DNA of 64,000 nucleotides from Cyclobacteriaceae bacterium (GTDB lineage Bacteria > Bacteroidota > Bacteroidia > Cytophagales > Cyclobacteriaceae). The stretch spans positions 8,033-72,032 of the forward strand of contig JAJLJS010000020.1 in NCBI GenBank assembly GCA_033844545.1, in the 5' to 3' direction. The notes below the pieces were generated by a model. That model did not search any database, was not told where the DNA came from, and worked only from the letters and a program-made list of their open reading frames with translations. Within the stretch, counting starts at the first letter, position 1, and every line of letters begins with the position of its first letter. The position numbers and the translations under genes were made by a program. Positions 15,663 to 61,943 of the stretch are shown piece by piece.

Positions 15663-15689
15663 ATAATGAGTACCTTTGTTACTCATTAT
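15663..15689. promoter_or_regulatory. Palindromic operator 1, ATAATGAGTA-N7-TACTCATTAT, overlapping the -7 element TACCTTTG (15671-15678)
   Basis: Perfect 10-bp arms; a second copy lies at 45094-45118. Confidence 0.75.
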
Positions 15690-15702
15690 TTCGGGATTTT
15701 TT

Positions 15703-16221
15703 ATGTTAGAATCTTTGATCACGTCCAAGACCAGGCTTAGGCTATTGGTAAAGTTTTTTGTCAACTCTCAGAATCATAGTCATTTAAGGGGGCTTGCTGA
15801 GGAATTTGGGGAGTCCACCAATGCCATTCGCAAAGAGCTGAATAACCTGACTCAGGCAGGAATTTTGGTCAAGCATTCAGACAAGAATAAAATAGAATAT
15901 CAAGCAAACGTCAAGCACCCTTTCTTTACCAATATCCGGGACATTATCCGAAAATATTTGGGACTGGATATGCTTTTGGAGCAAATCTTGGAAAGAATGG
16001 GAGAAGTGGAGCAGGTAGTGCTGACTGGAGATATAGCCAGGGGTAGCGATACGGGTACGATTGACGTATTGGTGACCGGGACAAATCTGAATGATGAATA
16101 CATCAGTCACTTGACCAAAAGGATAGAGCAGCTGATCGATCGCAAGGTCCTATTTACCTTGGCTACCGGAAGAATTTCTTCCGGAGGCCTAATCCTGTTT
16201 GACCGTCAGGCAGGAGTTTGA
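15703..16221 (+). CDS. Winged-helix (ArsR-like) regulator fused to a degenerate nucleotidyltransferase-like domain
   Basis: N-terminal LRGLAEEFGESTNAIRKELNNLTQAGIL wHTH. C-terminal VVLTGDIARGSDTGTIDVLVTG resembles the MNT motif GSxARG...DxD. ATG at 15703 preferred over TTG at 15676. Confidence 0.8.
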   Translation: MLESLITSKTRLRLLVKFFVNSQNHSHLRGLAEEFGESTNAIRKELNNLTQAGILVKHSDKNKIEYQANVKHPFFTNIRDIIRKYLGLDMLLEQILERMGEVEQVVLTGDIARGSDTGTIDVLVTGTNLNDEYISHLTKRIEQLIDRKVLFTLATGRISSGGLILFDRQAGV

Positions 16222-16241
16222 TTTTTTTTACAATAATAATT

Positions 16242-16280
16242 GCTTCGGTAGGTTCTAAATGGGACTGAAAGGGCGAAGCT
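16242..16280 (+). promoter_or_regulatory. Leader element 1 (ops/JUMPstart-like), core GGGACTGAAAGGGCGAAGCT at 16261-16280
   Basis: Core is 18/20 identical to 45217-45236; both copies lie upstream of polysaccharide genes. Confidence 0.6.
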
Positions 16281-16297
16281 GTATCTAGATAGACGTT

Positions 16298-18979
16298 ATG
16301 TTAGGGAAATTTTGCAACTTTGAAACCTTGAATTTGGAATTGAAAAGCAACCTTATTTATCCATTTGTTTTGAAAAAATTTTTGGTATTTATCCTGGTCT
16401 TTTTAGGATTGGGACTTCTTGGATTTGCCCAGAGTCTGAGCAATTTAAGTACTCTAAAGGTGGACAATCTTTCGGATGCCCAGATCGAGCAGTTGATCAA
16501 AAGAGCTGAAGCGAGCGGGTTGACCAGTTCCCAGTTGGAATCTCTGGCACAGGAGCAGGGATTGTCTCCGATTGAAGCTGCCAAGTTGAGGGAAAGAATA
16601 TATGGCCTCAATAGAAGAGCTTCAGGATCAAGCACCGCATCTTCATCGGGTGTGAGGACCTATTCAGGAGATCTCAACCAAGGCAAGGATCCATTTGATT
16701 CAATCCGTCGGGCGGATCCGTATTATGACCTTACTCCATTTCAGAAGAAGATTTTTGGTTACAAATTGTTTCATAACCGAAATCTGGATTTCAACCCCAG
16801 CTTGAATATCCCTACCCCCCAAGGATATGTGATCGGGGGAGGAGACCAAATGCTCATTGATGTGTACGGGGTGTCCCAGCAATCCTATGACCTCACAGTC
16901 ACTCCTGAAGGAAGAATTTTGATCCCGAATGTGGGAGTGATCCAGGTAGGTGGAAGTACCATCGAGGCGGCTACCGTAAGGATCAAATCTGCCCTGAGTA
17001 GGATATATTCCGGGCTTTCCGGAAATAATCCCAATACATTCCTGGAAGTTAGAATTGGAAATATCAGATCCATTAAAGTTTCCATGGTGGGTGAGTTGAG
17101 TATGCCTGGAACTTACACCTTACCGTCTTTTGCCACGGTATTCAACGGATTGTTTGCAGCGGGTGGACCCAATGAAAATGGGGCTTTTCGAAACATCCAA
17201 GTCTATCGGGATAGCAGACTGGTGGCTACAGTGGATATCTATGCTTTTTTGGCCAAAGGGGACCAAAGCTTCAATATCACTCTACAGGACAATGATGTGG
17301 TGATAGTGCCTCCAGTGCAGTCTAGGGTAGAAATATCCGGTCCAGTGCGTAGAGAGGGATATTTTGAGGTCAAACCAGGTGAGCATCTGACGGATTTGTA
17401 TGTCTATACCGGTGGATTTTTGCCCAATGCCTATCGGGAAAGAGTGACCGTGAGAAGGATTGAGGACAAAGACAAGAAGATTTTTGATGTCACACGAAGC
17501 GAATTTGATTCGTTTACACCTCAGGATGGGGATGAAATATTGATCAGTGAATCCCTGACCAGATTCTCCAATAGAGTCCAGATCGAAGGGGCTGTGTTTA
17601 GGCCGGGGGAATATTCTCTCGAAGAGGGAAATCTTACTGTCAAACAGTTGATTGAAAAGGCAGAAGGACTGAGGCCAGAGGCTTTTGCCAATCGTGCCAC
17701 TATTTACAGGACCAATTCCGATTTGACTTTAGGAGCTGAATCATTGGATTTGGAGGGGATTCTCAATGGAAATTCTCCTGATGTTACTCTCAAGAATGAG
17801 GATTTATTATTTATTCCAAGCAGGTATGATATCCAGGAGGAATTGTATGTGAAAATCTCAGGTGAAATAAATACTCCAGGCACCTATCCCTATGCCTCTT
17901 CGATGACTGTGGGGGATTTGATTTTAAGATCTGGTGGGTTTTTGGAATCGGCTACAAATTCCTCAATCGAGATCGCAAGAAGGATCAGAAATGCTACTTC
18001 ACCCGGTCGGATCGCTGAGATCATCACGCTGAATATCAGCCAGGATTTGACCTTGTCGGAGGCAGAGAAAAATTTGCCTTTGGAGGCCTTTGACCATGTT
18101 TTTATTCGAAGAAGGCCTGGGTTTGAAAGAGAACAACTCGTGAAAATATCTGGAGAAGTAATTTATCCCGGAGAATTTGCCCTGGCCGGAGCAAACGAAA
18201 GAATTTCTGATGTGGTGAAAAGGGCTGGGGGATTGACCCAATTTGCCTATCCAAAAGGAGCAAACTTGATCCGAAGAACCATATACTACAAGGGAGTTTC
18301 TGAGGAAAAAATGAGAGAGATAACCTTGGATGAAATCAGGGCTCGACTGGATCCCGAGAAAAACAGAAATGGCAATGAGGCCGAAAATTTGCTCTTCGAA
18401 AGATTGGATAAAAAACTTGCGGAGATTGAAGCCAAGCGGATTGAAGAAGAATTGAGGCAGGAGCGTGCCAGACTCAACCAGTTTTTCAGGTCCGATAGCG
18501 TGCTCTTGGATTCAGCAACCAATGCTCTGAGACTGAAAGAGCAGGATTTGGTGGGCATTGACCTGGAAGCGATTTTAGCAAATCCCGGAGGACCTGAGGA
18601 TTTGATTCTCCAGGAAGGAGATATTATTCAAATACCGAAACAGCTTCAAACAGTAAGAATGATTGGCGAAGTATTGTTGCCAACTACCACCCGATATGTT
18701 CGAAATCAAGGCCTTAAAGGATATATCTCCAAAGCAGGAGGATTTACCGAAAATGCCAGGCGAAGCAAGACTTATGTGATTTATGCCAATGGGGATGCCC
18801 GTAGAACCCATTCATACCTGGGACTCAAATTTTACCCTTCTCTGGAGCCAGGAGCTGAAATTGTAGTTCCTGAAAAACCCAGAAGGGAACGCATCACCGC
18901 TGGGGCATGGATTGGTATTGCGTCAAGCTTGGCCACAGTCGCTATTCTAGTCCAGACTTTGGTCAATAATTCTAACTAA
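16298..18979 (+). CDS. Large SLBB-domain polysaccharide export protein (Wza/KpsD-like)
   Basis: Poly_export motif YVIGGGDQMLIDVYG...EGRILIPNVG and multiple SLBB repeats (GEINTPG, GEVIYPG, AGG). The true start may be TTG 16370, which gives a signal peptide. Confidence 0.9.
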   Translation: MLGKFCNFETLNLELKSNLIYPFVLKKFLVFILVFLGLGLLGFAQSLSNLSTLKVDNLSDAQIEQLIKRAEASGLTSSQLESLAQEQGLSPIEAAKLRERIYGLNRRASGSSTASSSGVRTYSGDLNQGKDPFDSIRRADPYYDLTPFQKKIFGYKLFHNRNLDFNPSLNIPTPQGYVIGGGDQMLIDVYGVSQQSYDLTVTPEGRILIPNVGVIQVGGSTIEAATVRIKSALSRIYSGLSGNNPNTFLEVRIGNIRSIKVSMVGELSMPGTYTLPSFATVFNGLFAAGGPNENGAFRNIQVYRDSRLVATVDIYAFLAKGDQSFNITLQDNDVVIVPPVQSRVEISGPVRREGYFEVKPGEHLTDLYVYTGGFLPNAYRERVTVRRIEDKDKKIFDVTRSEFDSFTPQDGDEILISESLTRFSNRVQIEGAVFRPGEYSLEEGNLTVKQLIEKAEGLRPEAFANRATIYRTNSDLTLGAESLDLEGILNGNSPDVTLKNEDLLFIPSRYDIQEELYVKISGEINTPGTYPYASSMTVGDLILRSGGFLESATNSSIEIARRIRNATSPGRIAEIITLNISQDLTLSEAEKNLPLEAFDHVFIRRRPGFEREQLVKISGEVIYPGEFALAGANERISDVVKRAGGLTQFAYPKGANLIRRTIYYKGVSEEKMREITLDEIRARLDPEKNRNGNEAENLLFERLDKKLAEIEAKRIEEELRQERARLNQFFRSDSVLLDSATNALRLKEQDLVGIDLEAILANPGGPEDLILQEGDIIQIPKQLQTVRMIGEVLLPTTTRYVRNQGLKGYISKAGGFTENARRSKTYVIYANGDARRTHSYLGLKFYPSLEPGAEIVVPEKPRRERITAGAWIGIASSLATVAILVQTLVNNSN

Positions 18980-18988
18980 TTAAATTTT

Positions 18989-20308
18989 ATGAAAATTGCT
19001 GTAGTAGGAACAGGCTATGTGGGCTTGGTTTCAGGTGCATGTTTTGCGGATGTGGGGATTGAGGTTACCTGTGTGGACATTGACCAGAAAAAAATCGACA
19101 AACTCAGAAATGGGATTATGCCGATTTATGAGCCTGGCTTGGAGGAAATTGTAGTCCGGAATTATAAAAGTGGCCGCCTTCATTTCAGCACGGATCTTGG
19201 AGAAGCTATTCAAGGAGCAGAAGTCGCCTTCATTGCAGTGGGTACGCCTCCGGGTGAGGATGGTTCTGCGGATTTGAAATATGTTTTGGCTGTTGCGGAA
19301 GAAATCGGTACAAAAATGACCGATTACATCGTGGTAGCGACCAAGAGTACAGTTCCAGTGACTACCGGCGATAAAGTGAGAGCTACCATCAAAGCCGCTT
19401 TAGAAAAAAGAGGTTCAGATTTGCCTTTTGCAGTAGCATCCAATCCGGAATTTCTGAAAGAAGGTGCCGCAGTGGAGGATTTTTTGAGACCTGACCGAAT
19501 CGTGATCGGGGTGGATGACGAGCGAGCTGAGAAAATCATGCAACGTCTCTACAAACCTTTTCAGCTCTCCGGCGAACGAATTATCTATATGGATATTCCT
19601 TCAGCGGAAATGACCAAGTACGCAGCTAATGCCATGCTGGCTACCAAGATTTCCTTCATGAACGACATAGCCAATCTTTGTGAAAGAGTAGGAGCAGACG
19701 CGACAATGGTGCGAAAAGGGATAGGCTCCGATCCTAGAATCGGAACCAAGTTTATCTATCCCGGAGTGGGTTACGGGGGATCATGCTTTCCGAAAGATGT
19801 CAAAGCCATCATCAAAACAGCCAAGCAATACGGATACGATTTGAGAGTTTTGCAGGCGGTGGAAGATGTCAATGAAGACCAGAAATATATTTTGGCCAAT
19901 AAAGTAAAAGCCCATTTTGGAGAAGATCTTTCCGGAAAGACATTTGCCATGTGGGGTCTGAGTTTCAAGCCCAACACGGATGATATGCGGGAGGCTCCAG
20001 CTGCAGTGATTATTGATGAGCTTCGAGCTGCAGGCGCGCAAGTTAGAGCCTATGATCCGGTGGCAATGGAAGAAGCAAAAGAACATTATATCTTTGACAA
20101 AGTGACTTACTGCAAGGATGCCTATGATGCATGCGTAGATGCCGATGCCTTGCTCTTAGTCACAGAATGGTCTGAATTTAGAATTCCTAGTTGGGATGCA
20201 ATTGGGAAATTATTGAAAAACAAGGTGGTATTTGATGGCAGAAACATCTATGATCGAAAATACCTTGCAACGCTTGGATTTACCCATTACGGAATTGGGC
20301 TCAAATAA
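18989..20308 (+). CDS. ugd: UDP-glucose 6-dehydrogenase
   Basis: GTGYVGL, SNPEFLKEG, GYGGSCFPKD and FKPNTDDMRE motifs. Confidence 0.93.
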   Translation: MKIAVVGTGYVGLVSGACFADVGIEVTCVDIDQKKIDKLRNGIMPIYEPGLEEIVVRNYKSGRLHFSTDLGEAIQGAEVAFIAVGTPPGEDGSADLKYVLAVAEEIGTKMTDYIVVATKSTVPVTTGDKVRATIKAALEKRGSDLPFAVASNPEFLKEGAAVEDFLRPDRIVIGVDDERAEKIMQRLYKPFQLSGERIIYMDIPSAEMTKYAANAMLATKISFMNDIANLCERVGADATMVRKGIGSDPRIGTKFIYPGVGYGGSCFPKDVKAIIKTAKQYGYDLRVLQAVEDVNEDQKYILANKVKAHFGEDLSGKTFAMWGLSFKPNTDDMREAPAAVIIDELRAAGAQVRAYDPVAMEEAKEHYIFDKVTYCKDAYDACVDADALLLVTEWSEFRIPSWDAIGKLLKNKVVFDGRNIYDRKYLATLGFTHYGIGLK

Positions 20309-20320
20309 GCTGAGAATAGG

Positions 20321-20932
20321 GTGATAATCGCGGGAGCAGGGGGACATAGTTTGGAAGTCTTGGCTTTGATTCAAGGCTCCTATTCTTTTAGGGAACTTGC
20401 TTTTTATGATGAAATTCCCAGAGGATTGGATTCCCTTAATCGATTCCAGATTTTGAAGACAAAAGACGAAGTTCGAGAGAAATTTCAATCCAATCCCGAA
20501 TTTTGCCTGGGAATTGGAAATCCAAGTTTGAGAGAGAAATTTGATCGGGAGTTTACAGATCTGGGAGGAGAACTAACACCAATACTTGCTCAATCCAGCG
20601 TGATCCAAAGTGAAGCAAAATTCGCTGATGTCTTGTCCTTTGGGTTTATTGGTCCAAAAGTAAACCTAGGCAGGGGAGTTTTGGTAAATACCAGGGCGAG
20701 TATTCACCATGAATGTGAAATTGGGGAATATTCTGAAATTGGACCCGGAGCAATTCTTTTGGGAAAAGTGAAAATTGGGAAAAAATGCAGAATAGGGGCA
20801 GGAGCTGTTATTCTTCCGGGAATTACCCTTGGAGATGAGGTCGTAGTGGGAGCAGGGGCAGTGGTGACAGCAAATATGGAGTCATCAGTGGTTGTGGCCG
20901 GAGTTCCTGCAAAAAAGATAAATCAAGGCTAA
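20321..20932 (+). CDS. NeuD/PglD-like sugar acetyltransferase
   Basis: GAGGHS N-terminal domain plus hexapeptide repeats, GVPAK. Confidence 0.85.
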   Translation: MIIAGAGGHSLEVLALIQGSYSFRELAFYDEIPRGLDSLNRFQILKTKDEVREKFQSNPEFCLGIGNPSLREKFDREFTDLGGELTPILAQSSVIQSEAKFADVLSFGFIGPKVNLGRGVLVNTRASIHHECEIGEYSEIGPGAILLGKVKIGKKCRIGAGAVILPGITLGDEVVVGAGAVVTANMESSVVVAGVPAKKINQG

Positions 20933-20934
20933 GG

Positions 20935-22041
20935 ATGGATTCAGAAGACAAATCAGCTCAAGATCAGGTTACACTGAACTATTTATTGTTAATCCAGGAG
21001 GTATTTTCGAACAGGAAAGTTCTCTTTATTGGTGCAGGAATTGGGTTATTTCTTGGGATTTTGGTTGCCTTTACCACTCCAAAGGAGTATCAGGCTTCCT
21101 CGTATATTCTACTTGAGTCAGACTCGGGATCTTCTAGCCTTGGACAGTTAGGTGCATTTGCAGGATTGGCAGGGATTAATATGCCCCAGTTTCAATCTGG
21201 TCAATTGGCACTTACACCTGAGATATTTCCGGATGTGATTCAAAGCCGGGATTTTCTTTTGGAAATCTCGAAGGAGAAATTTGCTTTCGAAACCCGGGAA
21301 GGGGAGGTTATTTCTTTGGAAGAATATTACTTCGAAGAAAAGCCGGGAAACATTGTCAAAAAGACACTTAATTTCATCATTTCTATACCTGCAATTATCG
21401 CCAGTTGGTTTGATTCCCCGGATCCAATCCCAAGTACTATTCCAGATGAAGGAACTGATTCAGTGAAGCCAGCCTATTTAAACCTTTCTGGAAAAGAAAT
21501 ATTCTCAATCGGAGAGCTTAAAAAAAGGATCGAAATAGAGCAAAAAGGAAAGATGATTCGACTGAATGTCATGATGCCGGAGCCGTTGATCGCCGCTCAG
21601 GTAAATGCCATGGTGTTGGATATGTTGATTACCTACGTTACGGAATACAAAGTAGGAAAGCAGAAAAGAAACATTGAGTTCATTGAAGAAAGGGTGGCAG
21701 AGACCGAGCAGAAATTTTCCGAAGCCCAAATGCGATTGGCATCATTCAGAGATTCCAACCAGGGAATTATTTCCCAGAGGGTTCGCACTAGGGAGGAACA
21801 GTTGGAGTTTGAATTTAATATTGCCTACAATGTATATAACTCGCTAAAGCAAGAACTCGAACAGGCAAGAATCCAGTTAAAAAAGGAAACTCCCATCTTT
21901 ACTCCCTTGGAGAGAGCTACGCTACCTTTAGGAGCAGCAAAGCCAAACAAGCCTCTTATTTTGATTTTCTCCCTGTTCTTCGGACTGTTTTTAGGTGTCC
22001 TTTTCAATTTATACAACATATTAATCAAGACTATTCATTAA
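20935..22041 (+). CDS. wzz: Wzz-like chain-length determinant
   Basis: Two TMs flanking a coiled-coil periplasmic domain, PKEY motif and Pro-rich pre-TM2; no kinase domain. Confidence 0.8.
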   Translation: MDSEDKSAQDQVTLNYLLLIQEVFSNRKVLFIGAGIGLFLGILVAFTTPKEYQASSYILLESDSGSSSLGQLGAFAGLAGINMPQFQSGQLALTPEIFPDVIQSRDFLLEISKEKFAFETREGEVISLEEYYFEEKPGNIVKKTLNFIISIPAIIASWFDSPDPIPSTIPDEGTDSVKPAYLNLSGKEIFSIGELKKRIEIEQKGKMIRLNVMMPEPLIAAQVNAMVLDMLITYVTEYKVGKQKRNIEFIEERVAETEQKFSEAQMRLASFRDSNQGIISQRVRTREEQLEFEFNIAYNVYNSLKQELEQARIQLKKETPIFTPLERATLPLGAAKPNKPLILIFSLFFGLFLGVLFNLYNILIKTIH

Positions 22042-22048
22042 GATTTTG

Positions 22049-23179
22049 ATGAAAAATATTCAAATGGTCGATCTCAGAGCTCAATTTGAGCAGATTGAAG
22101 AAGAGATTAATCAAGCCATTCAGGGGGTACTGTCTAGTACCGCCTTTATCAATGGTCCGGAAGTCAAATTATTTGCCGCGGAACTAGAAGCGTATACGGG
22201 AGCAAAGCATGTCATCCCTTGCGGGAATGGAACAGATGCTCTTCAGATCGCAATGATGGCCTTGGGTTTTCAGCCGGGTCAAGAAGTTATCGTCCCTACT
22301 TTTACCTATGTAGCCACCGTTGAAGTTATTGCACTCCTGGGTTTAAAACCCAAATTTATAGATGTTTTGCCGGGAACGTTTGAACTGGATCCCAGCCAAT
22401 TGGAAAAAGTAATTGGGCCTAATGTCGTGGGGATTGTACCTGTTCATCTATATGGACAATGCTCCAACATGGAAGTGATTTTGAACTTTGCAGAAAAACA
22501 TGGGCTGAAAGTTATCGAAGATACAGCTCAAGCGATCGGGGCATCCTATACTTTCTCGGATGGGAAAAAAATGCAAGCCGGAACAATGGGGCATGTAGGA
22601 ACCACCTCTTTTTTCCCATCTAAAAATCTGGGCTGCTATGGAGATGGAGGTGCCATGTTTACCAATGATTCTGAGTTAGCTGAAAAGCTACGAATGATTG
22701 CCAACCATGGTCAAAAACGAAAGTATTACCATGATTCCATAGGAGTAAATTCCAGACTGGATACCCTTCAAGCTGCTATATTGAGAGTGAAATTACCTCA
22801 TTTGGATCGCTATTCTGCTTCGAGGAATCAGGTAGCAGAAAAGTATGACCTGGCTTTTAAAAATCATCCCAACATCCAAATACCGGAACGAGCAGCAAAT
22901 TCTACCCATGTTTTTCATCAATACACCGTGAAAATTAAAAACGCCTCCAGGGATGAATTGAAAGCCTTTTTGCAGGAAAATGGAGTTCCTTCTATGGTGT
23001 ATTATCCCGTTCCACTACATCTCCAGAAAGCGTATTTGGACTATGGGTATCAAAGGGGAGATTTTCCAGTTGCCGAGCAGCTTTGTGAACAAGTGCTTTC
23101 ATTTCCGATCCATACAGAGATGAACTTTGAAGAGCAAGATTATATCATTTCTACCATTTTAAACTTTTTCCAGCCATGA
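22049..23179 (+). CDS. DegT/DnrJ aminotransferase, WbpE/WlbC-like
   Basis: NGTDAL, EDTAQAIG, SFFPSKNLG (PLP Lys) and NSRLDTLQAA; adjacent to WbpD- and WbpB-like genes. Confidence 0.85.
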   Translation: MKNIQMVDLRAQFEQIEEEINQAIQGVLSSTAFINGPEVKLFAAELEAYTGAKHVIPCGNGTDALQIAMMALGFQPGQEVIVPTFTYVATVEVIALLGLKPKFIDVLPGTFELDPSQLEKVIGPNVVGIVPVHLYGQCSNMEVILNFAEKHGLKVIEDTAQAIGASYTFSDGKKMQAGTMGHVGTTSFFPSKNLGCYGDGGAMFTNDSELAEKLRMIANHGQKRKYYHDSIGVNSRLDTLQAAILRVKLPHLDRYSASRNQVAEKYDLAFKNHPNIQIPERAANSTHVFHQYTVKIKNASRDELKAFLQENGVPSMVYYPVPLHLQKAYLDYGYQRGDFPVAEQLCEQVLSFPIHTEMNFEEQDYIISTILNFFQP

Positions 23180-23748
23180 AAGACTATTTCGCCCATGAAA
23201 CTGCCGTCATCGATGAGGGATGTGAGATTGGGAAAGGAACCAAAATTTGGCATTTTTCTCACATTATGCCCCAGTGCAAAATCGGAGAAAATTGCAACAT
23301 CGGACAGAATGTGGTGATTTCTCCGGAGGTGGTTTTGGGAAAAAATGTGAAAGTCCAAAACAATGTTTCCATTTATACAGGTGTGACCTGCGATGATGAT
23401 GTGTTTTTGGGTCCCTCCATGGTTTTTACCAACGTTATAAATCCTAGAAGTGCAGTTAACCGCCGTGGTCAATATTCGAAAACCCATGTGGGCAAAGGGG
23501 CTTCTATAGGAGCAAATGCCACCATTGTTTGTGGCCATGATATCGGAGCCTATGCTTTCATCGGAGCGGGGGCAGTAGTGACCAAAACCATCCCGGCATA
23601 TGCATTGGTGGTAGGCAATCCTTCTAAGCAAATTGGTTGGATGAGTGAGTTTGGTCATCGGTTAACCTTTGACGAGAATGGTGAAGCCATCTGCCCGGAA
23701 TCAGGAGAAAAGTATCACTTGAAAAATGCCGCTGTAATAAAACTTTAA
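23176..23748 (+). CDS. WbpD/WlbB-like N-acetyltransferase
   Basis: HETAVIDEGCEIGKGTKIWHFSHI...GQNV...QNNVSIY...GPSMVFTNVINPRS. Confidence 0.9.
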   Translation: MKDYFAHETAVIDEGCEIGKGTKIWHFSHIMPQCKIGENCNIGQNVVISPEVVLGKNVKVQNNVSIYTGVTCDDDVFLGPSMVFTNVINPRSAVNRRGQYSKTHVGKGASIGANATIVCGHDIGAYAFIGAGAVVTKTIPAYALVVGNPSKQIGWMSEFGHRLTFDENGEAICPESGEKYHLKNAAVIKL

Positions 23749-23802
23749 CCAATATTTGATTATCCAGAGCTCCTTCTGGTTATCTTAAAATCTTATAATT
23801 AA

Positions 23803-24768
23803 ATGAAAAATTTTGCACTGATAGGCGCAGCTGGCTATATAGCTCCCCGACACATGAAGGCAATCAAGGATACTGGAAATGTCCTTTTGGCCTCCTATGA
23901 TAAATTTGATTCGGTAGGAGTAATGGATAGTTATTTTCCAGATGCTGACTTTTTTACAGAATTCGAGCGATTTGACCGACACGTGGAAAAGCTCAAAAGG
24001 AGCCAACAAAAAATCGATTACGTGAGCATTTGCTCCCCGAATTATCTTCACGATTCCCATATTCGGTTTGGTTTGAGAGTAGGTGCTGATGTCATTTGCG
24101 AAAAACCCTTGGTATTGAACCCATGGAATATCGAGGCACTCAAAGAGGTGGAAAAAGAACATGGAAAGCAGGTTTTCAATATCCTCCAGTTGAGATTGCA
24201 TCCGTCGATCATTGCTTTGAAAGAAAGAATTTCCAAAGGCCCAAAGGATAAGATCTACGACATTGATTTAGCCTACATCACATCTCGGGGACATTGGTAT
24301 TATACCTCCTGGAAAGGGGATATGAGCAAGTCTGGAGGGATTGCTACCAATATCGGAGTGCATTTTTACGACATGTTGGCTTGGGTGTTTGGTCCGGTAC
24401 AAGCCAATCAAGTCCACATCCATACCCACGATCGTGCAGCTGGCTATCTGGAATTGGAAAAGGCCAGGGTTCGCTGGTTTTTAAGTATCAATGCGGATAC
24501 ATTGCCAGAGGCTGTCAAAGCCAAAGGCGGGAGAACCTTCCGTTCACTTTCCATGGAAGGTGAAGAGATTGAATTCAGTGATGGATTTACAGAATTACAC
24601 ACCCATAGTTATCAGCATATTCTGGATGGACAAGGGTTTGGTTTGGATGAAGCAATTCATAGCATCCAGCTCGTACATGATATCCGGCATATGAAACCTG
24701 CCGGCTTGGTCGGGGAGTATCATCCCTTGGCAGCAGGGAAACTTGCCAAACATCCTTTTGAAAACTAA
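23803..24768 (+). CDS. WbpB/WlbA-like Gfo/Idh/MocA oxidoreductase (UDP-GlcNAcA 3-dehydrogenase)
   Basis: FALIGAAGYIAPRH, ICEKPL and GGIATNIGVHFYD motifs. Confidence 0.9.
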   Translation: MKNFALIGAAGYIAPRHMKAIKDTGNVLLASYDKFDSVGVMDSYFPDADFFTEFERFDRHVEKLKRSQQKIDYVSICSPNYLHDSHIRFGLRVGADVICEKPLVLNPWNIEALKEVEKEHGKQVFNILQLRLHPSIIALKERISKGPKDKIYDIDLAYITSRGHWYYTSWKGDMSKSGGIATNIGVHFYDMLAWVFGPVQANQVHIHTHDRAAGYLELEKARVRWFLSINADTLPEAVKAKGGRTFRSLSMEGEEIEFSDGFTELHTHSYQHILDGQGFGLDEAIHSIQLVHDIRHMKPAGLVGEYHPLAAGKLAKHPFEN

Positions 24769-24783
24769 TTGAAAACTAATTTT

Positions 24784-25764: not shown

Positions 25765-25795
25765 TTTTTTCCTTACGCTCAAAAATATTCTAACA

Positions 25796-26944: not shown

Positions 26945-26947
26945 AGA

Positions 26948-29397: not shown

Positions 29398-29398
29398 G

Positions 29399-33004: not shown

Positions 33005-33017
33005 GTTTTTTGGATTA

Positions 33018-34142: not shown

Positions 34143-34153
34143 CGTGTCTGTCC

Positions 34154-37170: not shown

Positions 37171-37185
37171 GCTTTTACCGATTTA

Positions 37186-40664: not shown

Positions 40665-40665
40665 C

Positions 40666-42258: not shown

Positions 42259-43339
42259 GAAGAAGCTTGCCATTTTAGGAATCGTTGGAGTTCCTGCAAA
42301 TTATGGTGGATTCGAAACTCTGGTTGAAAACCTGTTAGACTTATTGCCCAAATATTATGAGGTAACCGTCTTTTGTGAAAGCAAATCCTACCCGGAAAAA
42401 TTGAAGACCTACAAGGGAGCCAATTTGGCTTACCTTAATCTAAAGGCCAACGGGGCACAAAGTATCCTATACGATTCTATTTCTTTGCTAAAATCCTTCC
42501 GAAAGGAAGATTATATCCTAGTATTGGGAGTTTCGGGGGCTATTATGATCCCTTTTTTGAAACCTTTTACCAAAGCCAAAATTGTAACCCATATTGATGG
42601 CTTAGAGTGGAAAAGGGACAAATGGGGCTGGTTTGCCAAAAAGTTTTTAAGATTTTCAGAAATGCTTTCGGTTCGGTTTTCCCATGGGGTAATTGCTGAC
42701 AATAAGCATATTCAAAACTACATCACGGATGAATACCGAAAGGATTCCTTTTTGATTGCGTATGGGGCAAACCACGTCAGTCAAGTCGAAGTAGAGTCTT
42801 ATAAGAAGAAATTTTCTTTTTTGGGAAACCCTTATGTGTTTACAGTTTGCAGGATCGAACCGGAAAACAATGTGGAAATGCAGCTTAGGGCATTCAAAGA
42901 ATGTGAAATCGGTATGCCCTATGTGGTCGTTGGAAACTGGAATGCCAATGAATATGGAATGAGGCTTTACCATGATTACTCCAAGGTGAAAAATATTATT
43001 CTTTACAATCCCATCTATGAAATGGAAGAGCTCAATGTGCTTAGATCCAATAGCTTCTTTTATCTCCATGGACACAGTGCGGGTGGCACAAATCCATCTC
43101 TGGTAGAAGCGATGTATTTGGGCTTGCCGGTGATTGCCTATGGGGTTAATTACAACCGTGAAACAACCTTTGGTAAAGCATTGTACTTCAATAATTTTGA
43201 GGAATTGAAATGCCTATTACTTCAGATCAGAAGCTTGAATAGGGAACAAATGAGTCAGGACTTGTATAAACTGGCCAAAAAGAATTATTCCTGGAAGGCA
43301 ATCTCCAAAAAGTACATTAAAATGCTGGAAGCACTTTGA
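42251..43339 (+). CDS. DUF1972/GT4 glycosyltransferase (WchF/Cps2T-like)
   Basis: GVPANYGGFET, DGLEWKRDKW, RIEPENN and HGHSAGGTNPSLVEAM motifs. Confidence 0.88.
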   Translation: MNKKKLAILGIVGVPANYGGFETLVENLLDLLPKYYEVTVFCESKSYPEKLKTYKGANLAYLNLKANGAQSILYDSISLLKSFRKEDYILVLGVSGAIMIPFLKPFTKAKIVTHIDGLEWKRDKWGWFAKKFLRFSEMLSVRFSHGVIADNKHIQNYITDEYRKDSFLIAYGANHVSQVEVESYKKKFSFLGNPYVFTVCRIEPENNVEMQLRAFKECEIGMPYVVVGNWNANEYGMRLYHDYSKVKNIILYNPIYEMEELNVLRSNSFFYLHGHSAGGTNPSLVEAMYLGLPVIAYGVNYNRETTFGKALYFNNFEELKCLLLQIRSLNREQMSQDLYKLAKKNYSWKAISKKYIKMLEAL

Positions 43340-43352
43340 TTCCATAAAGGCT

Positions 43353-45041
43353 GTGGGTTTAAAAAGTTGGATTTATGTAGGGATTCTTTTACTTGGGCTG
43401 CTGGGGAGCGGGATCATTCATGGTCAGACCATTCCGGCAGGATTTCCCATTTTGGAGGAATATGCGAGGAAAGAAAGTCTTTTGGGAAATGAATGGAAAG
43501 AAAATTCATTTGCCTTGAGACCGATCAGAATTCCAAATGGATGGGGAAAGGAAAGAAATTATGAGGTAGATACCTCCCGGGCCAGTTTTCCCAGAAGAAT
43601 CAGAGCGGAAATACTTCCGTGGTTGAATACGACGATTTATAACCATAAAAGGCCTTTTGGATGGGGTAATTCCAGTTTGTTTAACGCAGCAGGATTCCAA
43701 AATCTAAATTCTCCGGGTTTTTTTTTCAAGTTTTTCCTTTTGGAAATCCAACTTAGACCTGAGTTTGTATACAGTCAAAACCCTGATTTTCAGGGCTACG
43801 GGGGACAGTTTTCTGACAACACCAATTTTTCACGATTCCGATTTTGGAATTTTGGAGACCATCCGGAGTATTTTGGAGAAGAATATCGGCAATTTGCCAC
43901 TTGGGGCCAGTCATATATTTCCTTGAATTTCGGGAAAATAGAGACTGGACTTAGTTCGCAAAATGTATGGTGGGGTCCCGGTCAGTTTTCCAGTTTGATT
44001 TTTTCCAACAATGCTAGGGGATTTAATCATCTTTTTCTGAGGACTTCCAAGCCTATTAATATTGGAATTGGACATTTAGAAGGTGAAATTTTAGCGGGTA
44101 GAGCTGAAGACTCAGGGCTTGATCCTTCCCAAAATCCAATCTTAAATCAGCAGTATTTTTGGAAGTTTTCAGGGGATTGGCGCTATGTTACTGGCATTAC
44201 TTTGACGTATCAACCAAAGTTTTTAAGGAATTTCTTTGTGGGATTCAACAGGACTTTTCAGCAATATAGCCAGGACGTAGAAAATACTTTCACCGGGAGA
44301 CTTCCCATTTTCGAGGCTTTTCAAAAAGAGAAATTTTTTGAAAGTGGAAATTCAGTCTTATATGACGCTTTGGCGCAGGACCAACAGGCTTCTGTTTTTT
44401 TTAAATACCGGTCCACGCAGGGAAAATTCGAGATGTATTCGGAGTTTGGAAAACATGACCATAATTTCAACTGGAGAGAATTTATGCTCAATCCAGAGCA
44501 TGCAAGGTCTTTTTTGATGGGTTTTTCCAAACTAATCTCACTTCCTAAGCCCGAAGAATATCTTCAGGTAAGAGCGGAACTCATCCACCAATCTGAATCT
44601 GTGAATCGGTATATCCGCTATCCTGTCTTGGGAGTTTCAAATACCAGCTGGCATACCCATTATCAAGTCCGTGGGTTTTCAAACTATGGAGAATCAATGG
44701 GGGCTGGGATAGGAGTAGGGGCCAATGCGCAGATCCTGGAAGTGTCCAAAATAAAAAATCTTGATAAAATCGGTATAACCCTCCAGCGGATTGAAAATCA
44801 CCAGGATTTTTTTTATCGGGCTTTTGAAGATGACCCAACACAGAGCCCTTGGATAGATCTGAGCTTGGGTGTCATTTGGAATAAACAATGGAAAAATCTT
44901 GTCTTTAGTGCTACAGGCCAGATGATTCAGGGAAAAAATTACCAATGGCAGTCTATTCAAAACCCCTCACCCGACTTTTATTCCGGCAATGATAAATTGT
45001 CATTTTCCGGGCAGCTACACCTGCTTTATTTGTTTCGGTAA
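43353..45041 (+). CDS. Capsule assembly Wzi-family outer-membrane protein
   Basis: Signal peptide, NVWWGPGQFSSLIFSNNARG and beta-barrel-like C-terminus. Confidence 0.8.
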   Translation: MGLKSWIYVGILLLGLLGSGIIHGQTIPAGFPILEEYARKESLLGNEWKENSFALRPIRIPNGWGKERNYEVDTSRASFPRRIRAEILPWLNTTIYNHKRPFGWGNSSLFNAAGFQNLNSPGFFFKFFLLEIQLRPEFVYSQNPDFQGYGGQFSDNTNFSRFRFWNFGDHPEYFGEEYRQFATWGQSYISLNFGKIETGLSSQNVWWGPGQFSSLIFSNNARGFNHLFLRTSKPINIGIGHLEGEILAGRAEDSGLDPSQNPILNQQYFWKFSGDWRYVTGITLTYQPKFLRNFFVGFNRTFQQYSQDVENTFTGRLPIFEAFQKEKFFESGNSVLYDALAQDQQASVFFKYRSTQGKFEMYSEFGKHDHNFNWREFMLNPEHARSFLMGFSKLISLPKPEEYLQVRAELIHQSESVNRYIRYPVLGVSNTSWHTHYQVRGFSNYGESMGAGIGVGANAQILEVSKIKNLDKIGITLQRIENHQDFFYRAFEDDPTQSPWIDLSLGVIWNKQWKNLVFSATGQMIQGKNYQWQSIQNPSPDFYSGNDKLSFSGQLHLLYLFR

Positions 45042-45093
45042 GAGAATGTTCACTATCGCGTTTCTTTTGGAGAATAACTTTGCCTAAAAATTA

Positions 45094-45118
45094 AAATGAG
45101 TAATTTTGGTACTCATTT
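45094..45118. promoter_or_regulatory. Palindromic operator 2, AAATGAGTA-N7-TACTCATTT, overlapping the -7 element TAATTTTG (45101-45108); -33 TTTG at 45079-45082
   Basis: Perfect 9-bp arms, with the same core and spacing as 15663-15689. Confidence 0.75.
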
Positions 45119-45205
45119 CTGACACGTTGAGACTGATAGGATTGTTAGATTTAAAGATTAAGCTTTTCATTGAAAGTAAACCTTCTTTCTCGATTCATAA
45201 AATTC

Positions 45206-45236
45206 AGCTAAGTCCCGGGACTGACCGGGCGAAGCT
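45206..45236 (+). promoter_or_regulatory. Leader element 2 (ops/JUMPstart-like), core GGGACTGACCGGGCGAAGCT at 45217-45236
   Basis: Core is 18/20 identical to 16261-16280; ends 34 bp before the first ATG of operon 2. Confidence 0.6.
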
Positions 45237-45270
45237 TTAAATACAAGCAATTTATAACTCAGATTTTTAT

Positions 45271-46575
45271 ATGTTGAAACCATTAAAAGAAATCAAAATC
45301 GGAATTATCGGTCTAGGCTATGTAGGCCTTCCCTTAGCAGTGGAATTTGCCAAAAAATTTCCTGTGGTCGGCTTTGATATTGACACAAAAAGAGTGGGGG
45401 ACCTTGTAAGCGGAAAGGATTTTACCCTCGAGGTTGAAGACGAACTTCTCCAATCGGTTTTGGTCAAAAATACCCCTAAAGTCGGTGAATCGGGATTGTT
45501 TCCGACATTTGAGGGAGATGCACTCAGAGATTGTACGGTTTACATCGTGACAGTTCCTACCCCTACTGACAAACATAATCGGCCAGTTTTGACCCCAATG
45601 CTCAAGGCGTCTGAGAATATTGGAAAATATCTTCAGCTCGGGGATGTGGTAATTTATGAATCCACCGTATATCCGGGGGTGACGGAAGAAGAATGTGTGC
45701 CCGTATTGGAAAAGGTGTCCGGACTGAAGTATAACTCAGACTTTTTTGCAGGGTATTCTCCCGAGCGAATTAATCCAGGAGACAAAGAGCATACCGTAGC
45801 TAAAATCCTGAAGGTGACCTCAGGAAGCACTCCGGAAGTGGCAGAGTATGTGGATCAGCTGTATAGACAAGTGATCACCGCAGGTACTCATAAAGCATCT
45901 TCCATCAAAGTTGCCGAAGCCGCCAAAGTGATTGAAAACTCCCAACGGGATATCAACATTGCTTTTGTCAATGAATTGTCCAAGATTTTTAATCTATTGG
46001 GAATAGATACCCAGGAGGTTTTGGAAGCAGCCGGGACAAAATGGAATTTCCTGAAATTCAAGCCGGGACTGGTAGGAGGGCATTGCATAGGAGTAGATCC
46101 TTTTTACCTGGCCCAAAAAGCCCAGGAGGTTGGCTATCATCCGGAAATAATTCTGGCAGGTCGTCGGTTGAATGATAGCATGGGCAAACACGTGGCTACA
46201 GAAGTAATCAAGCTGATGATGCGCAAAGACCTTAAGGTCATTGATTCCAAGGTTTTGATCCTTGGATTCACGTTTAAAGAAGATTGCCCGGATGTCCGAA
46301 ATACACGTGTGATTGATATTTACCGGGAACTTCGCTCCTTTGACATGGAGGTGGATGTCTATGACCCTTGGGCAAACCCCAATGAGGTGAAACATGAATA
46401 CGGGATAGACATTGCTTCTGGGGACGATGTTCCAGACCTCTCCACCTACTCTGCGGTGATTTTGGCAGTTGCACACCGGCAATTTTCGAGGCTTTCTATC
46501 CAAAAATCCTCCCAACAGGTAGTCTTTGATGTCAAAGGATTTCTGAAAAAGGAAAAGGTAGATGCGAGATTGTAA
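45271..46575 (+). CDS. UDP-N-acetylhexosamine 6-dehydrogenase (TviB/WbpO-like)
   Basis: GLGYVGLPLA, YSPERINPGD, GLVGGHCIGVDP and FKEDCPDVRNT motifs. Confidence 0.9.
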   Translation: MLKPLKEIKIGIIGLGYVGLPLAVEFAKKFPVVGFDIDTKRVGDLVSGKDFTLEVEDELLQSVLVKNTPKVGESGLFPTFEGDALRDCTVYIVTVPTPTDKHNRPVLTPMLKASENIGKYLQLGDVVIYESTVYPGVTEEECVPVLEKVSGLKYNSDFFAGYSPERINPGDKEHTVAKILKVTSGSTPEVAEYVDQLYRQVITAGTHKASSIKVAEAAKVIENSQRDINIAFVNELSKIFNLLGIDTQEVLEAAGTKWNFLKFKPGLVGGHCIGVDPFYLAQKAQEVGYHPEIILAGRRLNDSMGKHVATEVIKLMMRKDLKVIDSKVLILGFTFKEDCPDVRNTRVIDIYRELRSFDMEVDVYDPWANPNEVKHEYGIDIASGDDVPDLSTYSAVILAVAHRQFSRLSIQKSSQQVVFDVKGFLKKEKVDARL

Positions 46576-46631
46576 GGACTCCGCTACTAACTCATTTAAA
46601 ATTGTATATTTTTACCCAAATTTTAATTTGA

Positions 46632-47471
46632 ATGACATCACCTAAATTTCAGAGGTATAACCTTTCAGTTTACTCTTCCTTATTTCTGTTGTTTCTGATT
46701 TTCAGTAGTTCCTGTGTATCAAATAAGAAACTACTTTACCTTCAGGATTTAGAAGCTGACCAGCAGAAAGCACCTTATTCCAGCCAAAAATACCCCTATG
46801 AAGAAGAAAAGTATCGACTTCAGAACTATGATATTGTTGAAATCACGATAAAAACTCCAAGTGAAGAGCTCAACAAGACTTTTAGTATTATAACTGGGGA
46901 ACAATCCAACATGAATATGAACATGGGCCCGAATGGTGGCGACTTGTTCTACCTCAATGGATACACCTTGGATGAAGAAGGTATGGTAGAAATACCATTG
47001 CTTGGAAAACTGCAAATCGTTGGACTTACTCTTGAGGAGGCCAAAGACCTTATTGGATCAAAAGTCCAGAAATATGTTCCAGATAACAACTATTTTGTCA
47101 GGATCAGATTAGGGGGTATCAGGTTTTCCGCACTGGGTGAGTTTAATGCCCCAGGAAAAGTGACAATCCTTCAGAATAGAGTAACCATTTTTGAAGCCTT
47201 GGCATCTGCAGGAGATATGACTACCATTGCCAAACGTGATGAGGTTATCCTACTGAGACAATATCCGGACGGAAGCCAAATTCACAGAATTAACCTGAAT
47301 GACAGGAATCTGTTGAATTCTGAATTTTACTTCATCAAGCCAAATGACGTGATCTACGCGGAACCACTTAAAGTCAGAGAACTTGGTGCCGGGACGAATT
47401 TTATCCAAACTTTGGCTTTAATTACCTCTACAGTCTCCACTATTGCCTTGATCCTGACCATTGTTCAGTAA
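46632..47471 (+). CDS. wza: Wza-like polysaccharide export lipoprotein
   Basis: Lipobox SSSC, Poly_export domain (GMVEIPLLG) and SLBB repeat (GEFNAPG, EALASAGD). Confidence 0.88.
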   Translation: MTSPKFQRYNLSVYSSLFLLFLIFSSSCVSNKKLLYLQDLEADQQKAPYSSQKYPYEEEKYRLQNYDIVEITIKTPSEELNKTFSIITGEQSNMNMNMGPNGGDLFYLNGYTLDEEGMVEIPLLGKLQIVGLTLEEAKDLIGSKVQKYVPDNNYFVRIRLGGIRFSALGEFNAPGKVTILQNRVTIFEALASAGDMTTIAKRDEVILLRQYPDGSQIHRINLNDRNLLNSEFYFIKPNDVIYAEPLKVRELGAGTNFIQTLALITSTVSTIALILTIVQ

Positions 47472-47483
47472 TACCCATTTCTT

Positions 47484-49850
47484 ATGAATTTTGAAACAAA
47501 CGAGAACGACTTTATAGTGGAGGAATCCGGTTATGAGCTTAAAACTATCTTTTATAAGATAGTTCAGAAATGGCTTTATATTTTAGGATTTATAGTTTGT
47601 TGCTTGGTTTTAAGCTTCTTTTATACCAAAACCTCAATTCCACTTTACAAGGTGGAGAGTATGTTCTTTATCAAAGAAAAAGAATCGCCTTTGGCGATAT
47701 TCGGTTCCCAGTCCTTGATAGAGAATTCTTCCATGGGTCTCCAAAATGAGACCATTATCCTGAAATCCAAACCCGTAGCCCTAGAAGTTCTTAAAAAACT
47801 GGATTTTCAAGTTGAATATTTCCAGAATGGCAGATTTGTGGATACAGAAGTGTATAACAATAAGCCGGTTTTGGTAGAGGTCGATTGGAAAAATCCCCAG
47901 GTAAGCGATGGATTGATAAAATTGGATTGGCAAGACAACAATCGGTATGAGCTAACTTTCATTGACGACCATTACAACAAATTACTTCCGGACGGAAGCA
48001 AAGTTTCCTTTGGATTTAATCCTGAACCAATTTCTGGAAATTTTAACGAATGGCTCGTAAACAACGAACTGAAAATTAAAATAATGAAGATATCCACAGA
48101 ACCCTCAGGCTCTGTGATGTTCAAACTTCGGGATTTGAATTCTTTAGCGTCGTATTATTCAGGTTCTTTGGAAATTGAACCTGTTGAAAGAGGTGCTTCT
48201 ATTATGTTGCTTTCGGTAAAAACCCCTAATGCCCAAAAGGGAGAAATTTACCTCAATACCCTGATGGATACTTTTTTGGATATGGAGTTGGATCAAAAAA
48301 ATCTATCGGCCAGTAAGACCGTTAATTTCATAGACAGCCAAGTCGCAGGGGTAGCAGATTCCCTGAGATTTTTTGAAAATCAACTCCAAAATTTCAGGTC
48401 CTCCAATCGAACCTATAACCTTAGCTCAGAGAGCTCCTCGGTCTATGAAAGACTCATGGAGTATGAAAATCAAAGAACTCAGGAAAGGTTTAAGCGGAAC
48501 TATTACAAAAATCTAAAAACCTACCTTACCCAGGAAAACTATCAAGACATAATTGCCCCTTCGGGAATTGGAATTGAAGACCCCTTCCTTAATGGCTTGA
48601 TTACTAGCTTGATGGAACTCCAGGCGGAAAAATCTAGAATGCTGGCAGTCCAAACTGAGGCAGCTCCTGCAGTAATTGAGGTCAATAGAAAAATTAAGGA
48701 TTTGAATCGATCCATCTTGGAAAACCTTCAAAATATAGAAAGAAACTCTAATTCCTTATTAAACGATCTTGATAATCAAATTGCTCAAATAGACAGATCA
48801 TTTTCCAGTTTACCAGAAACTGAACAACAACTTATTCGATTGCAAAGAGAGTTTAGCCTCAGCGAAAACCTTTACAATTATTTGATGGAACGAAGGGCGG
48901 AGGCTGCAATTTCTAAAGCATCCAATGAAGCCAACAACAAGATTGTTGAACCGGCCAAAGGAGGATACCAGATTAGCCCTACCCCTTTAAAGAATTATTT
49001 GATAGCTATTATTCTGGGTCTGTTTTTTCCTATTGCCTTTATTTCAACCCGAGAATTGTTCCGAACAAAAATTGAGGATGTGCAATTTTTAGAAAACAAG
49101 CTAAGAATACCTTTATTAGGAACTATTTTGCTCAATAAAAAATCAAGTAATCCTTTGGTGGTATTGGAACAAAAAAGGTCTGGTATTTCTGAATCCTTCC
49201 GCTCCTTGAGAGCGAATATGAAGTTCATCCTGAAAAAAGATACCCAGTTAACTTTTTTGGTGACAAGTACAATTTCTGGGGAGGGAAAGACCTTCTGTGC
49301 AATGAACCTTGCCGCAGCCTATAGCCTGACAGGAAAGAAAACTGTATTGGTGGGATGTGACATGCGTAAACCAAAGATTTTTGAAAGCTTTGATCTCAAC
49401 AATGAAATTGGACTTTCTACCTTTTTAAGCGGTCAGGAAAAAGATTGGAAGAATATTGTTTCTACAACCAAGTATAAAAACCTGGAAGTTATTGTTTCCG
49501 GCCCAACCCCTCCGAATCCTGCCGAACTTCTCTTTGACAATAGCTTTGCTTCTCTTTTGGAAACTCTCAAGGAAAATTATGAAGTAATAGTCTTGGATAC
49601 CCCACCGGTTGGGCTAGTTAGTGAAACTTTGGATCTTCTGACCCTGGTGGATTGTAGCCTGTTCGTCTTCAGACAAAATTATAGTCAAAGGTCTTTTATT
49701 GATGCTGTTAATGGACTCAGAACAAATAAGGGAATAAAAAATATTTTTGCCCTTTTCAACGGTGTCGAATCCAATAAAGTAGCCTATGGATATGGATATT
49801 CCTACGGCTATGGCTATGGATACTACGAAGAGGATAAAAAGAAAAAATAA
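47484..49850 (+). CDS. wzc: Wzc BY-kinase / polysaccharide co-polymerase
   Basis: Two TMs, ESFRSLR, Walker A GEGKT, DMRKP, LDTPP and C-terminal Tyr cluster YGYGYSYGYGYGYY. Confidence 0.93.
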   Translation: MNFETNENDFIVEESGYELKTIFYKIVQKWLYILGFIVCCLVLSFFYTKTSIPLYKVESMFFIKEKESPLAIFGSQSLIENSSMGLQNETIILKSKPVALEVLKKLDFQVEYFQNGRFVDTEVYNNKPVLVEVDWKNPQVSDGLIKLDWQDNNRYELTFIDDHYNKLLPDGSKVSFGFNPEPISGNFNEWLVNNELKIKIMKISTEPSGSVMFKLRDLNSLASYYSGSLEIEPVERGASIMLLSVKTPNAQKGEIYLNTLMDTFLDMELDQKNLSASKTVNFIDSQVAGVADSLRFFENQLQNFRSSNRTYNLSSESSSVYERLMEYENQRTQERFKRNYYKNLKTYLTQENYQDIIAPSGIGIEDPFLNGLITSLMELQAEKSRMLAVQTEAAPAVIEVNRKIKDLNRSILENLQNIERNSNSLLNDLDNQIAQIDRSFSSLPETEQQLIRLQREFSLSENLYNYLMERRAEAAISKASNEANNKIVEPAKGGYQISPTPLKNYLIAIILGLFFPIAFISTRELFRTKIEDVQFLENKLRIPLLGTILLNKKSSNPLVVLEQKRSGISESFRSLRANMKFILKKDTQLTFLVTSTISGEGKTFCAMNLAAAYSLTGKKTVLVGCDMRKPKIFESFDLNNEIGLSTFLSGQEKDWKNIVSTTKYKNLEVIVSGPTPPNPAELLFDNSFASLLETLKENYEVIVLDTPPVGLVSETLDLLTLVDCSLFVFRQNYSQRSFIDAVNGLRTNKGIKNIFALFNGVESNKVAYGYGYSYGYGYGYYEEDKKKK

Positions 49851-49866
49851 TAAATGAATTTTATAC

Positions 49867-49895
49867 GGGGTTTGAGTTTCAAACCCCTTTCTTTT
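49867..49895 (+). terminator. Intrinsic terminator inside operon 2
   Basis: GGGGTTTGA-gtt-TCAAACCCC followed by TTTCTTTT. Confidence 0.7.
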
Positions 49896-49899
49896 GGAT

Positions 49900-53806: not shown

Positions 53807-53811
53807 ATGAT

Positions 53812-59298: not shown

Positions 59299-59299
59299 T

Positions 59300-61938: not shown

Positions 61939-61943
61939 CAGGA

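Follow-up and report, generated by a model that had tools for sequence, protein, structure and literature searches.

We examined a 64,000-nucleotide stretch of DNA from a Cyclobacteriaceae bacterium (assembly GCA_033844545.1, contig JAJLJS010000020.1, positions 8,033 to 72,032 of the forward strand; "the window" below), and found that its two long surface-polysaccharide operons each begin with the same palindrome, placed on the core promoter, followed by the same ops-type leader element. These operons are probably under two-level control, to which we assign a probability of about 0.6, exerted by a repressor at transcription initiation and by UpxY/ops antitermination during elongation. At the first level, a dimer of a protein with a winged helix and an MNT-like nucleotidyltransferase fold (paralog A in the window, paralog B on contig C64 of the same assembly) would bind the palindrome GAGTA-N7-TACTC. 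This site coincides with part of the Bacteroidota core promoter, covering the -7 box in some cases and lying in the -33/-7 spacer in others. A bound dimer would silence the gene for the regulator itself along with each glycan operon bearing the operator, i.e., at least three operons in this genome and four to five in two complete relatives. At the second level, RNA polymerase would transcribe an ops-type site of about 40 nt (a hairpin-forming segment, GAAAGG, and GCGAAGC-T|G), with a predicted pause at GCGAAGCT; a single stand-alone NusG paralog of the UpxY family, encoded on contig C285, would load at this site and form a termination-resistant polymerase able to cross 19-29 kb, including a hairpin terminator at 49867. 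The features concerned are listed by position within the window.

15665-15687, no strand assigned: candidate operator 1, AATGAGTA-N7-TACTCATT with core GAGTA-N7-TACTC (exact pattern match).
15671-15678: -7 box of operon 1, TACCTTTG, inside operator 1.
15703-16221, plus strand: regulator paralog A, 172 aa; winged helix-turn-helix in residues 1-90, MNT-like nucleotidyltransferase fold in residues 83-172.
16241-16284, plus strand: leader element 1, ops-like; short hairpin-forming segment, GAAAGG, GCGAAGC (16273-16279) and T|G; 52.3 bits with the leader covariance model R1.
16298-45041, plus strand: operon 1, about 29 kb; long Wza-type exporter, UDP-glucose dehydrogenase, glycan synthesis genes and a Wzi-like last gene (open reading frame list, Pfam).
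45079-45082: -33-like TTTG ahead of operator 2.
45095-45117, no strand assigned: candidate operator 2, palindrome identical to that of operator 1 (exact pattern match).
45101-45108: -7 box of operon 2, TAATTTTG, inside operator 2.
45201-45240, plus strand: leader element 2, ops-like, with the exact motif; GCGAAGC at 45229-45235; R1 score 38.5 bits.
45271-64000, plus strand: operon 2, continuing past the window end; TviB/WbpO-type UDP-sugar dehydrogenase, Wza, Wzc, ABC transporter and more genes (open reading frame list, Pfam).
49867-49895, plus strand: intrinsic-terminator-like hairpin GGGGTTTGA-GTT-TCAAACCCC, then TTTCTTTT, between wzc (which ends at 49850) and the ABC-transporter gene.

The pattern AATGAGTA-N7-TACTCATT occurred at two exact sites, with no other in the window even when 2 mismatches were allowed (0.03 expected by chance), and at both sites the -7 box TAnnTTTG started at base +3 of the GAGTA core. 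The leader motif GGGACTGAnnGGGCGAAGCT was exact at 16261-16280 and at 45217-45236 (0 expected by chance). An initial annotation of this DNA had proposed the same architecture at both operon heads; the palindrome on the -7 box and the leader are indeed exact in both, but the layouts differ, with 593 nt from operator to leader in operon 1, where the regulator gene lies in between (its start codon at 15703 is 15 bp past operator 1), and 119 nt in operon 2. Outside of the palindrome the two promoter regions were unlike each other and had little in common except a -33-like TTTG; a repeat or mobile-element origin of the twin promoters was ruled out, given the unrelated flanks.

The pairing of palindrome with leader was next counted over entire genomes. 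The window's assembly (G000) is 75% complete in 382 contigs and is assigned to Algoriphagus on the source names of near-identical proteins; the relatives compared belong to this genus, and two complete ones, G013 and G024, were counted genome-wide. Five GAGTA-N7-TACTC sites were present in the whole G000 assembly: three stood in promoter context and were paired 1:1 with three leaders, and the other two were inside coding sequence and resembled chance sites. The third pair is on contig C64, outside the window, where cGAGTA-N7-TACTCag stands ahead of the leader GGGAGTGAGAGGGCGAAGCT, which is followed by a gene for a four-helix-bundle protein and then by the 168-aa regulator paralog B (45% identity). 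Because paralogs A and B share one contig in complete relatives, with B 65-78 kb downstream of A, contig C64 probably continues the window's contig. The initial annotation had counted two operons and one regulator; the genome instead has a minimum of three such operons and a pair of paralogous regulators. G013 (4.2 Mb) had exactly four palindromes, one upstream of each of its four leaders; palindromes and leaders paired five of five in G024; and G069 had three paired palindromes, while its two others, whose spacers are GC-rich, match the level expected by chance (1-3 copies of the 10-base core per genome in the controls). Of 38 high-quality genomes in the genus, 37 had 2-6 copies of the leader as detected with R1. 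When 20 further leaders from six complete genomes were inspected, 19 had the exact palindrome upstream, at 14-210 nt or at about 570 nt (the spacing with the regulator gene intervening), and in all 20 the first downstream gene was a glycan gene or paralog B. The genes behind these leaders encode UDP-sugar dehydrogenase, Wza, ManC, GT8, a PglD-like acetyltransferase, MBOAT, a cytidylyltransferase and Wzt; taken together, 3-6 glycan operons in each genome form a coherent regulon.

The palindrome was also found to accompany the regulator gene, as the initial annotation had predicted for both motifs. The exact palindrome was in 23 of 25 regulator loci of relatives, that is, in all 23 that span the region upstream of the regulator, and the leader was in 23 of the 23 loci that cover the relevant DNA; the 19 of 20 further leaders above point the same way. 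For distant loci in the Bacteroidota, where the operator was scored as GAGTA-N7-TACTC with at most 1 mismatch (usual form TTGAGTA...TACTCAA), 18 of 20 had it 22-210 nt before the regulator start codon; the chance of finding it in a 200-nt stretch is about 2 in 10,000. Flanking DNA and downstream genes vary among these 20 loci; the palindrome itself varies in its 7-nt spacer but not in its half-sites. Of 401 Bacteroidota genomes sampled, from 179 genera, 52 genomes and 33 genera had a member of the regulator family, and these were not confined to the window's class. Given its place shortly ahead of the homologue's gene in 18 of the 20 distant cases, the palindrome is, judging from this comparison of sequences, very probably the regulator's operator. 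The palindrome could instead be bound by some other protein, or be a mere promoter feature, with the regulator acting elsewhere and the pairing reflecting shared locus ancestry. The chance copies of the 10-base core in each genome would allow for this, and binding by the regulator is a prediction; we nevertheless consider it highly improbable, as palindrome and regulator gene stay together in other classes of the phylum despite the differing flanks and downstream genes, sequences flanking the palindrome are unrelated, and the conservation of the half-sites parallels that of the near-invariant residues of the recognition helix, which is near-identical in paralogs A and B (ESTNAIRKELNNL and ESTNSVRVELNRL).

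Two placements of the operator were seen within the genus: around the -7 box and, in the ManC/GT8 promoter class, ahead of it, with 8 nt between the end of the operator and a perfect TATCTTTG; the orthologous operator 2, GAGTAATTTTGGTACTC, was present in G013, G069 and G050. Tandem operators with starts 20 bp apart (about two helical turns) were seen in L025, L036 and L105, representing three species with type-B promoters, and their spacing suggests that two dimers may bind cooperatively. The regulator is most probably an autoregulator that acts as a repressor, the direction of regulation being inferred from the overlap of the operator with the core promoter. It is possible, though in our judgment unlikely, that the winged-helix protein is an activator that aids sigma-A RNA polymerase in the manner of MerR-type spacer binders. 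One promoter class does have the site in the -33/-7 spacer, where MerR-like activators act, many palindrome spacers are poor as -7 boxes (e.g., TAATTTTT or TAAATTTA) and could need help, and activators are common at the heads of glycan loci. However, the site is not placed alike with respect to the -7 box in every promoter class, a variation that fits occlusion better than geometry-dependent activation; the closest structural relatives (ArsR/SmtB and MarR) are mostly repressors; and a site on the protein's own promoter is typical of negative feedback. Of the earlier proposal that the protein represses itself and both operons, the self-directed site and the promoter overlap stand in its favor, repression is the probable direction, and the regulon is larger than was proposed, with at least three operons and two regulators.

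The regulator had been described in the initial annotation as a winged helix joined to a pseudo-nucleotidyltransferase, and this was borne out by the AlphaFold2 (AF2) model, by structural superpositions and by the degenerate active site. Sequence searches with paralog A gave a weak HTH_DeoR match in Pfam and no significant match in the PDB; the ArsR model NF033788 scored 16.9 bits for paralog A and 23.4 for paralog B against a cut-off of 55, which is below family level. The AF2 model (predicted local distance difference test score, pLDDT, 93.8) gave a Foldseek list that includes 7aer_A and 5yep_A. Residues 1-90 superposed on ArsR/SmtB and MarR winged helices (Z 9-10.6), and residues 83-172 on MNT antitoxins (5yep_A, Z 10.3, root-mean-square deviation 2.5 Å over 78 aligned residues; 8xeh_E, Z 8.8). 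The nucleotidyltransferase signature is degenerate: G109-D110 stands in place of GS, D121 is kept within I120-D121-V122-L123, and the position of the second carboxylate is hydrophobic in all 47 aligned homologues. There were 5159 homologues in the databases, named only as DeoR/ArsR family or predicted nucleotidyltransferase.

Compared with the MNT antitoxins of HEPN-MNT pairs (e.g., Shewanella SO_3166, PDB 5YEP), the likeness is in the fold of the C-terminal 90 residues; the catalytic GSx(9-11)DxD of the antitoxins is degenerate in the regulator (GD first, and a hydrophobic residue for the second Asp), and the regulator is fused to a winged helix and placed at the heads of glycan loci without an adjacent HEPN partner. 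No HEPN gene was found beside it, its neighbors being a 124-aa open reading frame with no Pfam or NCBIfam match and the gene for the Wza-type exporter. With ArsR/SmtB and MarR repressors it shares the N-terminal fold, the site on its own promoter and a palindromic target with half-site centers 12 bp apart, but its effector or dimerization module is a nucleotidyltransferase fold and not an alpha5 metal site or the MarR dimer helices; relative to ArsR/SmtB only the fold is shared, far under the family cut-off. Some signal would presumably release the repressor, and that the nucleotidyltransferase fold senses a nucleotide or nucleotide-sugar is a guess. Conservation per column was 2.72 bits for the winged-helix part and 2.0 bits for the C-domain, and the lower value for the latter is a mild argument against one conserved ligand pocket.

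On sequence and genomic position, the leader element falls in the UpxY/ops class. UpxY proteins of B. fragilis load at opsX sites of about 40 bp, which comprise a segment encoding a pause hairpin and a non-template DNA hairpin, with the class-1 consensus YGCGNAGCR, and their specificity came from upstream duplex DNA rather than from the RNA hairpin (Saba et al. 2024, PMC11685472). The B. fragilis PSE ops, given in the Methods of that paper as CTGCGAAGCATA, has exactly the GCGAAGC core of the leader here (Saba et al. 2024, PMC11685472); the flanks of the core here are G and T, versus Y and R in the published consensus. A stand-alone UpxY-family gene, overlooked in the initial annotation, is present in the assembly at C285:418-963 (NF033644, 153 bits, cut-off 100), and the housekeeping NusG is separate, on contig C106 beside ribosomal-protein genes. 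Upstream of the C285 gene there was neither a GAGTA palindrome nor an ops element, and the gene appears to lie outside the regulon that its product may serve. On one side it is flanked by the 3' end of an AcrB-type efflux gene, on the other by a convergent gene of 393 aa.

Other lineages also link the ops element to UpxY. Eight of the 20 distant regulator loci have an adjacent UpxY-family gene (directly downstream in six), and in L125, from the window's family, the order is operator, ops, regulator, UpxY. A search for exact GACTGAnnGGGCGAAGCT with one genome per prokaryotic species gave at least 120 matches in at least 119 DNA stretches; the chance expectation for 16 specified bases in 596 Gb is about 277 matches. 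Yet among the matches listed, 104 of 120 (87%) were preceded by TGT or TGG, for which about 3% would be expected by chance, and 82 were followed by GT or AT; with unspecified flanks thus conserved in 87% of the matches listed, a chance origin was ruled out for most of the out-of-phylum matches. The matches spread over many orders of Bacteroidota and reach into Acidobacteriota, Nitrospirota and other phyla. For at least nine, a gene starting 20-60 nt downstream encodes a tblastn match to the UpxY of the window's genome; when six such genes were checked with NCBIfam, five passed the UpxY cut-off and one, a partial product, scored 99.8 against 100. This adjacency of ops and UpxY was seen in Nitrospirota, Acidobacteriota, Flavobacteriales and Chitinophagaceae. 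Five loci from Acidobacteriota and Nitrospirota (L151, L154, L180, L193 and L201) carry TGKGACTGAnnGGGCGAAGCTRT 20-60 nt before UpxY-family genes, and no winged-helix/MNT regulator was detected in the 8 kb fetched for each. The earlier idea that the leader licenses elongation gains support from this location directly upstream of UpxY genes in several phyla and from the identity of the core with that of a proven Bacteroides ops; UpxY would be the factor that reads it.

Several observations weigh against the two-level reading. In distant lineages the palindrome spacer has no recognizable -7 box, and the case for promoter occlusion comes mainly from the genus itself. Only operon 1 fits the elemental pause pattern G(-10) Y(-1) G(+1), the base after GCT being T, not G, in operons 2 and 3. 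Support for the upstream hairpin is modest: across 65 distinct leader sequences, 80% of the cells of the hairpin pair, and one pair clearly covaries (AU 23, UG 15, CG 14, GU 8), but pairing frequently fails at the outer positions. The GCGAAGC stem is invariant across the aligned leaders. The small-genome clade of the genus (G003, G007, G015, G016 and G062; 2.2-2.8 Mb, 76-91% complete) keeps UpxY, at 75-81% identity, and a long wza, which stands behind a plain TAgaTTTG promoter, but this clade was found to be without regulator, operator and leader. UpxY is therefore not dependent on the leader, and with UpxY in 59 of 61 genomes of the genus, leader-less ones included, the co-occurrence of UpxY and leader within the genus is uninformative and cannot discriminate. 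Finally, a terminator hairpin at the wzc/ABC-transporter junction was not found in four further species.

The leader could also act as RNA, bound by the UpxY KOW domain (as proposed for LoaP) or by the regulator's MNT-like domain, or alone like EAR, and so control antitermination or stability. We regard this as rather improbable. The hairpin ahead of the conserved core, with its covarying pair, would agree with it, as would the joint loss of leader and regulator in the small-genome clade where UpxY stays. On the other hand, conservation is strongest in unpaired sequence and in the invariant GCGAAGC, the core matches the DNA hairpin recognized in B. fragilis (where upstream duplex DNA gave specificity), and the helix has only 3-6 pairs. 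RNAalifold on a MAFFT alignment of the leaders gave almost no structure (-0.8 kcal/mol), and a hand-given structure with covariance-model re-alignment gave modest covariation only. The whole window had no Rfam match at gathering thresholds, and at E up to 10 the two leaders gave only chance matches to CRISPR-DR5 and Termite-leu, with no JUMPstart.

UpxY/opsX capsule antitermination in Bacteroides fragilis was reportedly described by Chatzidaki-Livanis in 2009. The window's genome resembles that system in having a UpxY-family NusG paralog (NF033644) and, in long polysaccharide operons, a leader site of about 40 nt in which a putative hairpin-forming segment precedes a GCGNAGC core; the resemblance to class-1 loci (+41/42), with the site 20-60 nt before the upxY start codon, is found in other lineages only. 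In contrast with the locus-specific Y/ops pairs of B. fragilis, one stand-alone UpxY and one ops consensus would serve all operons here, and where the B. fragilis loci begin with upxY and upxZ, the heads of the three loci here encode the winged-helix regulator, a UDP-sugar dehydrogenase and the four-helix-bundle protein. The regulator had no NCBIfam UpxZ match and no upxZ was present at the three locus heads, the rest of the genome not having been searched for UpxZ. No invertible promoter is evident, and initiation is apparently gated by a DNA-binding regulator. The claim that this control differs from that of Bacteroides is therefore right for the initiation tier, in which a repressor would replace the invertible promoter, and not for the elongation tier, which would use the same kind of device.

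With E. coli RfaH and its ops/JUMPstart, the system shares a single NusG paralog encoded away from several long envelope-glycan operons and a short leader with a C-G-closed mini-hairpin core (GCGGTAGC for RfaH, GCGAAGC here). With 59 bits on TIGR01955, where the cut-off is 144.5, the UpxY protein does not qualify as an RfaH equivalog, the 12-nt RfaH ops GGCGGTAGCGTG is not matched, in keeping with the lack of a JUMPstart match, and the element here is longer (about 23-40 nt).

The internal terminator of operon 2 was present as the initial annotation had reported, and the hairpin proper (49867-49887) has a 9 bp GC-rich stem and a 3-nt loop. An identical hairpin occurs in G013 (folding energy -12.7 kcal/mol). 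Being shared with this nearest species only, the terminator says little for a designed tier; its presence is consistent with antitermination without pointing to a conserved design. A second terminator-like hairpin, at 16193-16215, overlaps the last regulator codons, with a T-run after the stop codon. It was dropped as part of the module because the T-run is not conserved in relatives, and it could attenuate read-through into operon 1 in the window's species.

To our knowledge, control of capsule and exopolysaccharide synthesis in the Bacteroidota is understood almost only for gut Bacteroides, with their invertible promoters and locus-specific UpxY/UpxZ. The arrangement outlined here for free-living Cytophagales and many other Bacteroidota consists of a winged-helix/MNT regulator, a single UpxY and one shared ops sequence. 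A search of the literature for UpxY outside Bacteroides, for winged-helix/nucleotidyltransferase capsule regulators and for the motif string found no description. The elongation tier is known in kind, and one unlinked UpxY for one ops consensus at every operon is RfaH-like logic; this suggests that the multi-paralog system of Bacteroides arose by elaboration from a simpler, RfaH-like one. At the initiation tier, the probable autoregulator with its winged helix and MNT fold comes from an uncharacterized family whose operator is found across the phylum. The analysis yields a directly testable operator, regulon and ops consensus, and the position of the ops element just before UpxY genes in other phyla offers a way to look for UpxY targets across whole genomes. 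A broader and doubtful conjecture is that the 23-nt consensus given above is the common loading site of the UpxY family across at least the Bacteroidota, Acidobacteriota and Nitrospirota, as GGCGGTAGCGTG is to RfaH, and that in the Bacteroidota it is coupled to a master repressor whose dead nucleotidyltransferase domain senses a nucleotide or nucleotide-sugar. If the repressor does so, initiation of the glycan operons would be tied to precursor supply.

Some further details of these loci were recorded. The third leader (L007 about 1440-1800, minus strand, contig C64) has an insertion of about 70 nt within the hairpin loop, followed by a run of AATTAGG repeats, and upstream of its promoter there is an array of short CGACA/ACAACC-type repeats and the 3' end of a 333-aa open reading frame. 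L136, a contig labelled as a Limnohabitans metagenome-assembled genome, carries an Algoriphagus-type regulator (tblastn E 2e-81), a leader and a palindrome 589 nt upstream of the leader; this contig is probably mis-binned. The 124-aa open reading frame next to the regulator is at 15230-15604, directly 5' of operator 1, and is itself preceded by a penicillin-amidase-family gene (12809-15223).

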